Sequence record: OP557969.1
Origin: Escherichia phage ph0011
Reading direction: 5' to 3' (one strand)
DNA length: 64,000 nucleotides
Shown here piece by piece: positions 7,665 through 58,265 of this stretch; the first letter of the stretch is position 1; every line of letters begins with the position of its first letter. Below the pieces are notes generated by a model. It was not told the origin of the DNA and made no database searches. It saw only the letters and a list, made by a program, of their open reading frames with translations. The translations under genes were made by a program, and so were the position numbers.

Positions 7665-8006
7665 ATGGAATATGATTTTTCTATTTATATGCCTATAATT
7701 AGTTCACAAGATGTGTATTGTAATCTTAATAAAGGTGATTACGAACACAAAATGGATCAGTACATTAAATTTAATGGTGCGTACTTTAGCTTCATTGATT
7801 ATCAGGCCAAAGGATCAGTTGTAGAAAATATGAAAGACTATACAACAGTACATGGTGAGGCTGAAATATTTCAAGAGTCATTAATATTCGACAAGAAGTA
7901 CTTGTGTACTCTAGAGGAAGTAATTGAACTCCAACAGAAGATGAAAGAATATAGAAGAATCTACACAGAGACTGGTTCCAAAGATAGGTATCGTTTTAAG
8001 CTATGA
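7665..8006 (+). CDS. FQ-family paralog (short form)
   Basis: ATG at 7665 directly after upstream TAA; core GEAEIFQESLIFDKKYLCTLEE. Confidence 0.7.
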   Translation: MEYDFSIYMPIISSQDVYCNLNKGDYEHKMDQYIKFNGAYFSFIDYQAKGSVVENMKDYTTVHGEAEIFQESLIFDKKYLCTLEEVIELQQKMKEYRRIYTETGSKDRYRFKL

Positions 8007-9567: not shown

Positions 9568-10010
9568 TGTCATTACAAAGTGCTCTTGAAAAAGCAAAAG
9601 AACTTCATGCATATATTGAAGATATTAAGGCTGGGAAGTTCGAAGAAATATACAAAGCCGAGAATGGTAACTACTACAAGGATAGTGATTTTGCTACAAC
9701 TACAGTTATTCTTGGGTTGAATTCCAAAAGTCCAGTAGACTTTTCTCAATACAATCCAGATGCAGAATTTATTAGTTATGCTTATGGTGGCGAAATCCGT
9801 TTTTATAATCGCAGCAGACCTTTAAAATTGAACTTTGAAGTACTGAAAGGTCCGTGGGATAGTGAAGAGTACTACTTCCAGAATAGAACTTTGTATGATG
9901 ATGAAGTTCTAGATACTTTAGTTATTATGTGGTACTTTAAAAGTATTGATAGTACAAGATTTTATTTGGATTATGAATATGTACGTGAAGTTTATAAGGG
10001 TAAACGATGA
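9567..10010 (+). CDS. FQ-family paralog (long form)
   Basis: TAATG overlap; N-terminal MSLQSALEKAKE; core GPWDSEEYYFQNRTLYD...WYFK. Confidence 0.7.
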   Translation: MSLQSALEKAKELHAYIEDIKAGKFEEIYKAENGNYYKDSDFATTTVILGLNSKSPVDFSQYNPDAEFISYAYGGEIRFYNRSRPLKLNFEVLKGPWDSEEYYFQNRTLYDDEVLDTLVIMWYFKSIDSTRFYLDYEYVREVYKGKR

Positions 10011-10321
10011 AATTCTTATACAATATTCAGTACATTCCGGGTACAATTAGTTTAATGTATTTCTTCGACCATGATAATTTCCAACATCTTGCAGTTAGGA
10101 GATGTAATGAATCTTTAATGATCGAATATCTTCACGATTGTGATTATCTTCCTGACTTACTTGAATGTGATTACAGAGATGAGCATGAATCATTTCTGTT
10201 TCAGGAATCACTTGTATGGGACAAGAGAATAAATTTTTATGTTTTACTTGAGATACAAAAACAAGTAAAGTACTACTGGGATTACTTAATCACCCAAGAC
10301 TATATAGAGATTGAAATATAA
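10007..10321 (+). CDS. FQ-family paralog (short form)
   Basis: ATGA overlap; core HESFLFQESLVWDKR. Confidence 0.65.
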   Translation: MKFLYNIQYIPGTISLMYFFDHDNFQHLAVRRCNESLMIEYLHDCDYLPDLLECDYRDEHESFLFQESLVWDKRINFYVLLEIQKQVKYYWDYLITQDYIEIEI

Positions 10322-10764
10322 TGTACGAAAGTGATCTTAAGCACGCTGAAGAATTAGTTAATATAGTAAAGTTCTTTCAAAATAATGTAAAGTACTTAGA
10401 CTATAAAGGGGCTTATATTAGTACTATAAGTGTTGGTACAGATATTCTAGGATTAGGCAATGAATATAAGTACGAGTCCCATGATTATGACTTGGAATTC
10501 AAGTACTTCGTATGGGATTCTGGAACTTTCTATTCTATAGATGAAGATGGCAAATATTTTGAATTCACAGAAGAAGAAGTTCTATTCTTAAATTCAGAAG
10601 ATGCTTACTTTCAATATAGTACTATATACCCAAACGCGGCGTTAAGAGCTTTAGTAGTTTTTAATGCATTTCTGAAAGAGAACTTTAACAATTCTATATT
10701 CATTGATTTAGATTATGTATATGAACTAAATCAGGTGATATATATGGAGTCCAGAAAAGAATGA
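10321..10764 (+). CDS. FQ-family paralog
   Basis: TAATG overlap; core SEDAYFQYSTIYP. Confidence 0.65.
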   Translation: MYESDLKHAEELVNIVKFFQNNVKYLDYKGAYISTISVGTDILGLGNEYKYESHDYDLEFKYFVWDSGTFYSIDEDGKYFEFTEEEVLFLNSEDAYFQYSTIYPNAALRALVVFNAFLKENFNNSIFIDLDYVYELNQVIYMESRKE

Positions 10765-54836: not shown

Positions 54837-55090
54837 CATTATTGGCAATCGCTGGTTTTTTGTTTATATTAGTTTTCTTGTTATTATTGGTAATGTTTGT
54901 TATTGATGATAACGATGGATATTTCAGAAATTATAAAGTACGCTTTTCTGCACAAAATAATAAGTATTATATTGTGAATTGTATTAAACATCGTGAAAAG
55001 AATGTAACAAATAGATTTGGATTTACAATTTATTACAAAGACCGCGTAGAGGCTGATATGATTTGTCAAAAACTTAACACAGTAGAATAA
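54833..55090 (+). CDS. small predicted membrane protein
   Basis: ATGA overlap; N-terminal hydrophobic helix. Confidence 0.5.
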   Translation: MTLLAIAGFLFILVFLLLLVMFVIDDNDGYFRNYKVRFSAQNNKYYIVNCIKHREKNVTNRFGFTIYYKDRVEADMICQKLNTVE

Positions 55091-55118
55091 AAAAAGGAGC
55101 CATATGGCTCCTTTTTTA
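55088..55118. terminator. bidirectional rho-independent terminator
   Basis: A-run, GGAGCCA-TA-TGGCTCC hairpin, T-run; sits between convergent + genes and the minus-strand gene. Confidence 0.7.
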
Positions 55119-55320
55119 TGTTTTTACGTAAGATGTATAGATCATTATTCAATTTGATTTTGTGAATCATATACATAGAACAAAAACCTCCAACACCTGC
55201 TTTTTCATCTTTTAATTTAATGAAGAAAGTATCATCTCTTAGACTTTCATCTGAATTTTCGATACTATCAATAGAAAAAGGAAGTCTTCCGGTTAATGCA
55301 ATTATGCTACTCTAAGGAAA

Positions 55321-55356: not shown

Positions 55357-58029
55357 TTAAGCACTGATTGTTACAGTTGCAGTATCTTTTTTATTACCAT
55401 CCACTGTAGTCACTGTAATGATTACAGAACCTTCTTCTAGAGCAGTTACTAATCCATCATCACTAATAGATACTTTAGTAGGTTTATCTGCACTATAAGT
55501 TACTGATTTGTTAGTTGCTTTAGCTGGTAGAACTTCTGGAACTAGTTGAACTGTTTTAGTTCCTGATAGTGAAAGTTCAGTAGTTTTAGGTGTTAAACTA
55601 ACACTGGATACTGGAACTGGAATATTAACGATTACTGATGTTTGACCAGTAACATCACTACCATCAGCGGCAGTAGCGATAATATTTGCAGTACCATTAG
55701 TTAGTGCAGTTACGATACCAGTATTAGCATCTACTTTAGCAATTTCTGGAGCACTGGATGACCAAATTACATTTTTATTGGTTGCATCACTTGGGGTAAT
55801 TGCAGCAGCCATTTGTTTAGTTGCATTCAATGTAGTCAAAGTTTGATCTTTAGGAGTTACATCAATTGCAGTTACTGGCACTGGAATATTAACAGTAATA
55901 ACACCTTGACCTGTTTTACCACTTCCATCAGCAGCAGTTGCGATAATGTTTGCAGAACCGTTAGTTAACGCAGTTACAACACCAGTACTAGCATCTACTT
56001 TCGCTACAGCAGGTTTACTGGAAGACCATGTTACAGATTTATTTGTTGCGTTAGTTGGAAGAACTTCAGCAGCCATTGCTTGAGTTGCGTTAACAGCAGT
56101 CAATGTTTTAGTTGCTGGAGTAACATTAATAGATGCGACTGGAACTGGAATTGCTACAGTTACCGCACATTTTGCAGTTTTTGCTCCATCAGCAGTTGTT
56201 ACTGTGATATCAGCAGTGCCATTTGCTACAGCAGTGATTAAACCAGTTGGACTAACAGTTGCCACTCCATCAGCAGAAGTACTATAAGTTACTGCTTTGT
56301 TGGTAGCATTAGGTGGTAGTACAGTTGGTGTTAGTTGTTGAGTATCACCGACTGAAGTTAATTTAGCACTTGTTGGAGATACTGATACACTTGCAACAGG
56401 AACTGGAATGTTAACAGTTACCACGCAAACTTTAGAAAATCCACCATCAGATGTGGTTGCTGTAATATTTGCAGTACCGTTTGCAACAGCAGTGATTAAA
56501 CCAGTTGGACTTACCGTTGCGACACCCTCAGCAGAAGTAGTGTATGAAATATCTTTACGACGAGCGTTATCTGGAATAACAGATGCAGTTAGTTGTTGAG
56601 TAGCACCTACAGAAGTTAGGGTTGCTGTCAACGGAGTCATATTAATTCCAGTTACTGGGATCGTTACATCAATCACTGATTCAGCAGTTTTAGCACCATC
56701 ATCAGTGGTAACAGTAATAGTTGTAGTACCGTTATCAACCGAAGTTACTAGACCAGTATTACTAACTTTTGCTACGTCTGGATATGAAGAAACATATGAA
56801 ACTGCTTTATTGGATGCAGTTGCAGGAGCAACGGTTGTTTCTAATTGTTTAGTATCACCTAATGTTGAGAATGTATAAGTACTAGGAGTCATTGTGACAC
56901 CAGATACTGGTGTTTTCACTGTGATTGTAGTAGTGTCCGTTTTAGCACCATCTTCGGTTGTAGCTGTAATCACCACTGTGCCGTTAGCCACACCAGTTAC
57001 TAGACCAGAAGTAGGGTTAACAGTTGCTATATCAGGTGTTGCTGAAGACCACGTGACGTTTTTATTAGTTGCATCATCAGGAGATATTGTAGCAGTTAAT
57101 TGTTGAGTACTGCCAACGTTAATTGATGCAGTTTTAGGAGAAACAACAACACCACTAACTGGAGTTGTTACAGTAACAGTACATTTTGAAACAAATGAAC
57201 CATCAACTGTAGTTGCAATTACATCAGTACTGCCATCTGCAATACCAGTTACCATACCAGTTGGACTTACAGTTGCGAAGCGTGGTATACTGGATGACCA
57301 AATAACACTTTTATCACTTGCATCATCGGGTGATACGGTAGCTGTTAGTTGATGAGTTTTACCAACACCAAGAGATAGAGTTGAAGGAGAAACAACAACA
57401 CCACTAACTGGAGTTGTTACAGTAAATGCACAAACATCGGTGAAACCACCATCATGAGTAGTAACTGTTACATTTGCATTACCATTAGCACGGGCAATTG
57501 CTAAACCAGTTTGAGCATCAACTTCAACTATTGTTGGAGCAGAGGAACTATAACTTACTGTTGGATCATTTGCATAATCTGGATTAATTGTAGCTGATAG
57601 TTGTTGTGTGCTACCAACTTTAAGTGCTACTACTTTGGGTGAAATAATAACACCATTAACTGGTGTAGTATAATCACGTTTAACCACACGACCATTGTTC
57701 AATTTAATAATACGACCCATATAAAGAGTAGCATATCCCTTACTAATCCCATCATCTACATAAATCATAAATGAATTGTCTTGAACCATATTAATTGCGT
57801 CTACTGGCTTAACAGTATTTGGAATGTCGATACCACGGGTATCATACCAACACATGGAAACTTTGTAATATATATCACCATTATCATTGATGAGATCATA
57901 CACGTTACTGGAACGTTGACGGTTAATATATAAAGTTTCGGTTAATACCTTACCATCGATTTTAGCGACAGAAACTTTAATACCACCAATACCAAATGGC
58001 AATTTACCTTCACTAGATATTGCTTTCAT
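55357..58029 (-). CDS. large virion-surface-type protein with about nine to ten tandem Ig-like (Big_2-type) domains
   Basis: 890-aa ORF, the only strong minus-strand gene; AAGGAAA RBS; repeated 85-90-aa units TPVSGV..SP...L.VG.TQQLTATV.P.DATNK.V.WSS..P..A.V...G.VT.VA.GT..ITATT.DG; ~120-aa non-repeat N-terminal domain. Confidence 0.85.
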   Translation of the reverse strand: MKAISSEGKLPFGIGGIKVSVAKIDGKVLTETLYINRQRSSNVYDLINDNGDIYYKVSMCWYDTRGIDIPNTVKPVDAINMVQDNSFMIYVDDGISKGYATLYMGRIIKLNNGRVVKRDYTTPVNGVIISPKVVALKVGSTQQLSATINPDYANDPTVSYSSSAPTIVEVDAQTGLAIARANGNANVTVTTHDGGFTDVCAFTVTTPVSGVVVSPSTLSLGVGKTHQLTATVSPDDASDKSVIWSSSIPRFATVSPTGMVTGIADGSTDVIATTVDGSFVSKCTVTVTTPVSGVVVSPKTASINVGSTQQLTATISPDDATNKNVTWSSATPDIATVNPTSGLVTGVANGTVVITATTEDGAKTDTTTITVKTPVSGVTMTPSTYTFSTLGDTKQLETTVAPATASNKAVSYVSSYPDVAKVSNTGLVTSVDNGTTTITVTTDDGAKTAESVIDVTIPVTGINMTPLTATLTSVGATQQLTASVIPDNARRKDISYTTSAEGVATVSPTGLITAVANGTANITATTSDGGFSKVCVVTVNIPVPVASVSVSPTSAKLTSVGDTQQLTPTVLPPNATNKAVTYSTSADGVATVSPTGLITAVANGTADITVTTADGAKTAKCAVTVAIPVPVASINVTPATKTLTAVNATQAMAAEVLPTNATNKSVTWSSSKPAVAKVDASTGVVTALTNGSANIIATAADGSGKTGQGVITVNIPVPVTAIDVTPKDQTLTTLNATKQMAAAITPSDATNKNVIWSSSAPEIAKVDANTGIVTALTNGTANIIATAADGSDVTGQTSVIVNIPVPVSSVSLTPKTTELSLSGTKTVQLVPEVLPAKATNKSVTYSADKPTKVSISDDGLVTALEEGSVIITVTTVDGNKKDTATVTISA
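55360..57670 (-). repeat. in-frame tandem repeats of about 255-270 bp encoding Ig-like domains
   Basis: Recurrent nucleotide and peptide units visible across the gene body. Confidence 0.65.
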
Positions 58030-58066
58030 ATACTTTCCTTTATAAAATTGTATTGTATTGTTATAT

Positions 58067-58074
58067 TATTTATA
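58067..58074 (-). promoter_or_regulatory. T4-type late promoter (TATAAATA)
   Basis: TATAAATA on the minus strand 38 nt upstream of the ATG at 58029. Confidence 0.45.
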
Positions 58075-58265
58075 TTATAACAAAATTATTTTAGTATTAA
58101 AAAGGTGTTCGAATGCTTCTTGAAATCTGGCTTGGACAGGTCAATCTTTGCTTTTAAAATGGAATTGTAAACTGCCTCCTGATATGATATCATAGTTTAA
58201 ATGGTAAATCAATAAACTTAACAAAAAAAACTTGCTACTACAGTCATAATTGTTCAATTTTGTAC

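Follow-up and report, generated by a model that had tools for sequence, protein, structure and literature searches.

A nine-unit Ig-like protein of a jumbo coliphage, with an old, diverged array that probably changes length rarely and by whole units

Introduction

Phage display proteins with immunoglobulin (Ig)-like domains in lineage-specific numbers are a known kind of protein, and the gene considered here is one of them: it lies on the minus strand of a 64,000-nucleotide stretch of Escherichia phage ph0011 (record OP557969.1; hereafter the window, numbered from its first letter) and encodes an N-terminal domain (N-domain) followed by nine Ig-like domains of the Big_2 type. Its syntenic orthologs in the Rak2-like phages have in common with it the N-domain, the position, the opposite orientation and Big_2-type C-terminal domains; the window gene differs from them by its nine units.

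Protein pb10 of phage T5 resembles it in its order of parts, with a particle-binding domain at the N-terminus and then an Ig-like domain exposed to solvent (PMC5292684), and was first mis-called a tail protein for its Ig domain, as these orthologs have been (PMC7602432). The pb10 anchor is alpha-helical, sits at hexamer centres and bears one Ig domain, whereas the anchor here is predicted to be all-beta, with no detectable similarity. T4 Hoc is likewise an elongated Ig-like string on the virion; it is dispensable, and weak adhesion to glycans or mucus has been suggested as its role (PMC7602432). A Pfam scan of the window protein found no Hoc family or sequence match; judged from domain architecture, the Hoc/pb10-type layout is present, with solvent-exposed-type Ig domains joined to a separate N-domain. 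The Periscope Proteins (SasG, Rib, Sgo_0707, CdrA) share the tandem Ig-like stalk, the short proline-rich linkers and the strain-variable repeat number, and their distal functional domain is possibly paralleled by the last unit of our array (U9), always terminal and conserved, yet still a Big_2 unit (PMC8201768). Their repeats are highly identical in DNA, the property behind their rapid changes in number, and belong to a cell-wall host, whereas here the identity is 49-73% and the setting is a phage particle. Major tail proteins of the lambda gpV type also have Big_2 appended to a phage structural protein, and are the source of 'major tail protein' labels; they combine a tube-forming N-terminal domain with one Big_2, while the window protein has no such domain and nine units.

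Our analysis indicates that the gene probably encodes a late virion-surface Ig protein with an old, diverged array, in which length changes rarely and by whole units at the linkers and alleles are shuffled between phages. What is new is modest: the gene itself, the highest unit count among the syntenic orthologs examined, linker junctions precise to the unit, and exchange of a mosaic kind.

Architecture of the array

The gene, its units and the longest repeat within it are placed as follows.

55357..58029, minus strand: complete gene, 890 amino acids (aa), N-terminal domain plus nine Big_2 units, from open reading frame (ORF), Pfam, PHROG and synteny
57667..58029, minus strand: N-terminal domain, aa 1-121, presumed virion-anchoring module
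57415..57666, minus strand: U1, aa 122-205, proximal Big_2 domain, in all three close alleles
57166..57414, minus strand: U2, aa 206-288, missing in phages UE-S1 and A4, bracketed by a 41-nt perfect repeat
56914..57165, minus strand: U3, aa 289-372
56662..56913, minus strand: U4, aa 373-456, 99.2% DNA identity to its UE-S1 counterpart
56410..56661, minus strand: U5, aa 457-540
56152..56409, minus strand: U6, aa 541-626, missing in UE-S1, placed after U7 in A4
55888..56151, minus strand: U7, aa 627-714
55624..55887, minus strand: U8, aa 715-802, missing in UE-S1 and A4, youngest-looking duplicate (72.7% DNA identity to U7)
55360..55623, minus strand: U9, aa 803-890, distal terminal unit, always last, 93-95% conserved in UE-S1/A4
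57385..57425, minus strand: left copy of the 41-nt perfect direct repeat, U1|U2 linker, with the UE-S1 junction inside it
57136..57176, minus strand: right copy of the 41-nt perfect direct repeat, U2|U3 linker

Units were cut at the linkers and defined from the protein, since Tandem Repeats Finder saw only U7/U8. Nine in-frame units of 83-88 aa (249-264 bp) each fill exactly 55360-57666, with U9 among those least like the others. The first-pass annotation had proposed an in-frame tandem array at 55360-57670 in units of 255-270 bp; the array is there, its unit length is revised to the measured range, and the quoted motifs recur, IPVPV linkers opening U6-U9 and ATNK.V.[WY]S appearing in U3 and U6-U9. 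On the 890-aa protein Pfam reported nine Big_2 (PF02368) stretches (E 9.3e-136; 442.5 bits against a cut-off of 22.8), the best of them spanning profile positions 1-79 of 79, and a purpose-built family hidden Markov model (HMM) likewise counted nine. No Big_2 unit occurs in the rest of the 64-kb window.

DNA identity between units peaks in the linker, with a pairwise mean of 0.59 at the junction versus 0.40-0.46 elsewhere. Exact direct repeats of at least 18 nt number two in the gene, the 41-nt repeat around U2 (spacing 249) and a 26-nt repeat at 56486-56511 and 56228-56253, inside U5 and U6 (spacing 258); the remaining unit pairs share exact runs of 16 nt or less. By our estimate, a perfect run of 41 nt between sequences otherwise ~65% identical would arise by chance with a probability of about 1e-4 when every in-register pair of units is considered, and the run points to recent homogenisation or a recombination footprint.

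Divergence between units

The units resemble one another essentially at the protein level. Their DNA identity is 49-73% in unit-versus-unit comparison (U7/U8 72.7%, U5/U6 66.7% and U2/U3 65.5% being the top pairs) and their protein identity 35-67%. U7/U8 was detected by Tandem Repeats Finder with a period of 264, 1.9 copies and 75% matches, and a gapless repeat finder returned 5-8 copies of short segments at 60-85% identity with a spacing of 249-264. At positions with an amino acid common to two units, the codon too is shared in 52% of cases versus 48% expected from the codon usage of the array; the residual DNA-level signal is confined to U7/U8 (67% same codon). Comparison of unit with unit gives a proportion of synonymous differences (pS) of 0.45-0.68 and, for the three closest pairs, 0.72-0.98 synonymous substitutions per synonymous site (dS), as approximated by the Nei-Gojobori method (NG86): synonymous sites are essentially randomised. 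The high similarity first ascribed to the units is therefore not confirmed in their DNA, since identity, pS and codon sharing all leave almost the whole of the array with protein-level similarity only, the outcome that the first-pass annotation itself had named as speaking against its reading.

Because U2 and U8 are only 65-73% identical to their neighbours, they are not recent in-situ duplicates. A diversity-generating retroelement target was also considered and rejected: the mismatches within the pairs U7/U8, U5/U6 and U2/U3 are not biased towards A (21-35 of 72-88) and are not concentrated at the adenines of one copy.

Whole-unit differences between close alleles

High-stringency matches to the gene came from two phage records only, those of Escherichia phages UE-S1 (ON568341, 358 kb) and A4 (ON286972, 355 kb), which were the full-length close alleles in the searched collections. 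Both are filed under Asteriusvirus, and the window phage is an Asteriusvirus-like jumbo coliphage. A protein-pattern scan of IMG/VR yielded no further alleles, an IMG/VR DNA scan with an invariant U9 33-mer and a JGI metagenome scan with an invariant N-domain 30-mer yielded nothing, and vB_EcoM_JNE01, an A4 relative named in PMC13070987, did not appear in the phage-collection searches.

Both alleles are intact and in frame, UE-S1 gene UES1_422 encoding 633 aa with six units and A4 gene A4_464 encoding 722 aa with seven. UE-S1 holds U1, U3, U4, U5, U7 and U9 at 93.7-99.2% DNA identity and is without U2, U6 and U8, while the unit order in A4 is U1, U3, U4, U5, U7, U6, U9. All three UE-S1 junctions fall exactly at unit boundaries, within the conserved linker, where exact identity comprises the 41-nt repeat for U2, ~11 nt for U6 and ~14 nt for U8. 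Whole-unit changes have occurred at least three times among alleles otherwise 94-99% identical, every time at a linker. The variation in repeat number that had been foreseen from the sequence is real to this extent, that relatives differ by whole in-frame units (nine, six and seven) and that the UE-S1 junctions lie in the linker.

Orthologous units of the window and UE-S1 are separated by a dS of 0.03-0.18 and paralogous units by one of 0.7 or more, so the insertions and deletions are much younger than the duplications. U6 is also present in A4, at 86% identity, and was therefore most simply lost by UE-S1; U2 and U8, missing from both relatives, were either lost twice or imported from an unsampled allele.

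A contig of the Logan collection (ERR11566739; L011) carries at 10001-10641 a near-identical copy of the 5' end of the gene, in which two extra nucleotides, AT, within an (AT)n run shift the reading frame of the N-domain (product P0002, 76 aa). Because the Logan contigs for P0001 and P0002 go no further than the first linker, units could not be counted in them. The end of L011 lies exactly 30 nt into the 41-nt junction repeat ('C plus 30 nt'), as a k=31 unitig break predicts, which suggests that the L011 phage also has the duplicated linker; the contig end is uninformative on polymorphism.

Exchange between phages

Divergence from the two relatives is uneven along the gene and its surroundings. 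Against UE-S1, dS is 0.03-0.18 across the parts of the gene (N-domain and shared units; N-domain 0.10) and 0.17-0.93 in flanking genes. Against A4 it is 0.25 for the N-domain, 0.12 for U7 and U9, 0.41 for U6 and 0.7-1.05 for U1, U4 and U5, with flanking genes ranging from 0.77 to saturation (more than 2). The stretch 55357-58125, comprising the Ig gene and its 5' region, is far more conserved in comparison with UE-S1 and A4 than the neighbouring genes are; over the 90 nt that precede the ATG, the window, UE-S1, A4 and one Logan contig barely differ. This pattern indicates recent lateral exchange of the Ig cassette.

Codon bias depresses dS somewhat but cannot explain a tenfold contrast inside one gene. 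The fourth unit of A4 is a U5/U6 chimera, and this together with the dS contrasts therefore argues that homologous exchange has carried the cassette, and parts of the array, from one lineage to another. Some length differences may stem from inter-genomic recombination instead of intragenic slippage. A short U8-like patch in unit 5 of UE-S1 (93% versus 89-91%) was too weak to count as gene conversion.

The far greater similarity of gene and promoter region than of flanks, as measured by dS, would also fit a static fibre, the 6-, 7- and 9-unit genes then being old, separately evolved alleles whose cassette is swapped whole. We regard this as unlikely, since six units are 94-99% identical to those of UE-S1 with three interspersed ones missing, which makes the indels much younger than the units, and since A4 is mosaic inside the array, which places crossovers within it and not just around it.

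Routes to length change

In E. coli, exchange that depends on RecA requires perfect identity over roughly 23-27 bp and becomes more frequent as the identity lengthens; without RecA, slippage between direct repeats that lie close together manages with shorter identities, at low frequency, and T4-type phages undergo deletions between repeats of about 10 bp. In the array only U2, with its 41 nt of identity 249 bp apart, is plausibly a good recombination substrate. The U5/U6 26-mer is borderline, and its use would yield a U5/U6 hybrid unit. Because the DNA of the units has diverged and U2 alone has a good substrate, the array is unsuited to frequent slippage. Slipped recombination, the mechanism first suggested for it, thus keeps a plausible deletion substrate in the 41-nt repeat around U2, but frequent slippage or unequal exchange is not to be expected between units so diverged.

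These data bear on a high-frequency, variable-length 'periscope-like' locus, in which slippage or unequal exchange would keep generating variants within a population. Close relatives do differ by whole units, the 41-nt repeat brackets U2, a 26-nt exact repeat links U5 and U6, and the Logan contig breaks at the junction repeat, although a k=31 unitig end explains that break without polymorphism. Periscope repeats, however, are highly identical in DNA, with the most extreme variation where identity is highest (PMC8201768), whereas our units are 49-73% identical with synonymous sites at chance level; exact identity extends over just ~11-14 nt at two of the three UE-S1 junctions, and a good substrate exists for one unit (U2) at most. 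We consider such a locus distinctly improbable here.

It is very unlikely that the copy-number differences are repeats collapsed in short-read assemblies of UE-S1 and A4. An assembly by de Bruijn graph can skip U2 by way of the 41-nt repeat, and Logan contigs break there; the other two missing units, however, are flanked by ~11-14 nt of identity, the units (73% or less) are too diverged to collapse, all three ORFs are intact and in frame, and the unit order of A4 differs. UE-S1 and A4 may be short-read assemblies, but collapse cannot fake the absence of U6 and U8 or the A4 order.

Virion presence and proposed function

Orthologs of the protein have been found in virions by mass spectrometry: gp347 of phAPEC6 (14.1 kDa, N-domain only) with 8 peptides and 75% coverage (PMC7247149), and CBB_112 (N-domain plus one Big_2) with 4 peptides and 24% coverage (PMC5259590). 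The authors of the RaK2 study proposed a host-interaction role for gp496 (PMC3622015), and phAPEC6 has decoration densities, their protein unassigned, at capsid hexamer centres and on the tail. That the protein is a major tail (tube) protein, as several orthologs are annotated and as strong PHROG matches to 'major tail protein' families, along with the names given in databases to CBB_112 and the RaK2/K64-1 orthologs, would have it, is extremely improbable, since those PHROG matches lie in the Big_2 units and the N-domain model has no tail-tube neighbour. The database labels 'major tail protein' and 'hypothetical protein' are misleading in this phage group.

The probable reading is a late-expressed virion-surface Ig protein with a rarely changing array, which we propose would work as follows. 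The 121-aa beta-rich N-domain would attach the protein to the particle, and the nine Big_2 domains, joined by short proline-containing linkers (TPV / IPVPV), would project as a flexible filament. An Ig domain is ~3.5-4 nm long, and arrays of 6, 7 and 9 units might then reach roughly 22, 26 and 33 nm (nine units, roughly 30-35 nm). By analogy with other phage Ig-like display proteins, the filament would most likely bind carbohydrates of bacterial or mucosal surfaces, weakly and at many points at once. The array would have arisen from old tandem duplications of one Big_2 domain, distant orthologs having 0-2, with the copies then diverging until their similarity was essentially at the protein level. 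Length change would be rare, whole-unit and in frame, through recombination or deletion at the linker, the sole place of lasting DNA identity, and alleles would be shuffled between co-infecting phages.

Several points weigh against this proposal. The 4.1-A capsid reconstruction of phiKp24 is explained by the major capsid protein alone, so a capsid site is not assured (PMC9700779). The N-domain is a presumed anchor, its place on capsid or tail conjectural, and its predicted model, all-beta, has no informative structural neighbour. Weak multivalent carbohydrate adhesion, by analogy the most likely function, is putative. The strong codon bias of the array (GC content at third codon positions, GC3, 12.5%) leaves the NG86 dS approximate. 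The direction of change, loss in UE-S1 versus import here, is settled for U6 only, and a short-read assembly that collapsed over the 41-nt repeat might conceivably account for the lack of U2 in UE-S1.

The only sequences that a search of the Protein Data Bank with the N-domain brought up were engineered OspA beta-hairpin repeats, which we took to be spurious. That the protein makes up the long 'hairs' of phAPEC6 or CBB was considered and, for those two phages, rejected, the orthologs having 0 and 1 Ig domain and the CBB hairs measuring 119 nm.

The N-domain family

Residues 1-115 match phrog_33171 ('virion structural protein'; E 3.9e-15, profile positions 1-111 of 125), while Pfam found no match in the first 121 residues; PHROG matches labelled 'Ig domain', like those labelled 'major tail protein', lie in the Big_2 repeats. 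A tblastn search with the N-domain recovered 56 jumbo-phage records of the Rak2-like group, in which locus and orientation are constant: the gene is on the opposite strand, between the dCMP deaminase gene and ClpP-like/Sir2/NUDIX genes. N-domain identity among syntenic orthologs is 24-98% in amino acids, and the N-domain alignment has 9 invariant columns. Big_2 units number 0 in 121Q gp471, PBECO4 and phAPEC6 gp347, 1 in RaK2 gp496, CBB_112 and Munch_133, and 2 in Serratia BF_105 and Yersinia fHe-Yen9-03 g098c; the nine of the window gene are the maximum among the syntenic Big_2-type orthologs examined (UE-S1 6, A4 7). Within the array U6 comes nearest to the single unit of distant orthologs, and its likeness to that of CBB (70% aa), greater than to most neighbour units, fits expansion from a one-domain ancestor. 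The papers on UE-S1 and fEgEco12 do not mention the Ig protein.

Wider searches gave a similar picture of the N-domain. A profile of ten N-domains retrieved 22 relatives from a collection of 5.8 billion proteins, each with 0 or 1 Big_2; the full protein at 1e-10 retrieved one fragment, and the N-domain alone two matches. An HMMER search of 1.84 billion representatives gave 56 N-domain relatives, with C-terminal parts that are other Ig-like arrays (Invasin_D3/Big_1-like or HYDIN/ASH-like), in proteins of up to 1859 aa. Since such diverse C-terminal modules stand on one N-domain, the N-domain appears to be a conserved adaptor and the C-terminal string an interchangeable payload.

Paralogs add to this range of modules. 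In Yersinia phage fHe-Yen9-03 (L008, 4995-6032), g099c joins the N-domain to an unrelated non-Big_2 module of ~210 aa, directly upstream of the Big_2-bearing paralog g098c, an instance of the N-domain reused as an adaptor. In phage A4 (L002, 6273-6776), A4_466 and A4_465 (proteins P0042 and P0044) are fragments of a third paralog type, intact members of which (1095 and 1859 aa) have the N-domain and up to ~19 HYDIN/ASH-like Ig units; gp472, a small ORF of 121Q, is possibly a further N-domain fragment of this kind.

A bolder reading would make the N-domain a structurally novel universal adaptor for Ig filaments of 0 to about 20 domains and at least three Ig types, their length in this lineage actively tuned in phage-periscope style, with conserved U1 and U9 around a variable stalk, linker DNA kept identical (the 41-nt repeat) while the remainder of each unit may diverge, unit change possible but restrained, and these proteins contributing to the phAPEC6/CBB 'hairs'. 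We find this doubtful.

Locus and signals

The Ig gene is the lone minus-strand gene amid a plus-strand run, flanked on one side by a ClpP protease, small ORFs and dCMP deaminase and on the other by a ClpP-like protein, Sir2 and NUDIX. Four candidate signals accompany it.

58067..58074, minus strand: T4-type late-promoter-like core TATAAATA, 45 nt upstream of the ATG
58036..58040, minus strand: Shine-Dalgarno-like AAGGA, 6 nt before the ATG, identical in UE-S1, A4 and L011
55320..55343, unstranded: perfect palindromic hairpin with a 10-bp stem, 14 nt past the stop codon, with the same hairpin after the A4 gene
55090..55117, unstranded: bidirectional terminator-like hairpin, A6-stem-loop-stem-T6, between convergent transcription units

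The promoter-like core occurs in 2 copies in the 64 kb versus 15.1 +/- 3.6 expected from shuffles, which suggests that it is avoided outside real promoters in the phage. It is kept at -44/-45 in UE-S1, A4 and L011 (four genomes including the window) and would serve as a late promoter for the Ig gene; the second copy, at 7682-7689 (minus strand), is antisense to plus-strand genes. From these signals the Ig gene looks like a self-contained late cassette.

Upstream of the putative late promoter, at 58100-58125 (minus strand), a hairpin with a T-run is degenerate in the window (GAAGC...CACC TTTTT), its counterpart in UE-S1 and A4 being a clean terminator-like stem (GGAGC...CTCC TTTTTT). Across the array (55360-57666, minus strand), GC3 is 12.5% versus 18-26% in neighbour genes, and overall GC is 39% versus 32.5% for the window; the third-position bias is consistent with high expression or a distinct history. 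Between the stop codon of the Ig gene and the terminator, 55123-55310 (minus strand) holds the decayed remnant of a second, N-domain-only paralog, 75.5% identical over 49 aa to A4_463 (E 3e-20). Some 55 aa are missing from the interior of the remnant, which also lacks a start codon; A4 has an intact 124-aa gene there.

Implications

No new kind of system is revealed here. A diverged array still changes length in whole units, via short conserved linker DNA. Ig-like domains are common on phage particles, and their role in weak glycan or mucus adhesion is still debated; culturable coliphages and their relatives offer a natural length series of 0, 1, 2, 6, 7 and 9 domains on one anchor, which would allow a direct test of filament length against adsorption, host range and mucus retention.

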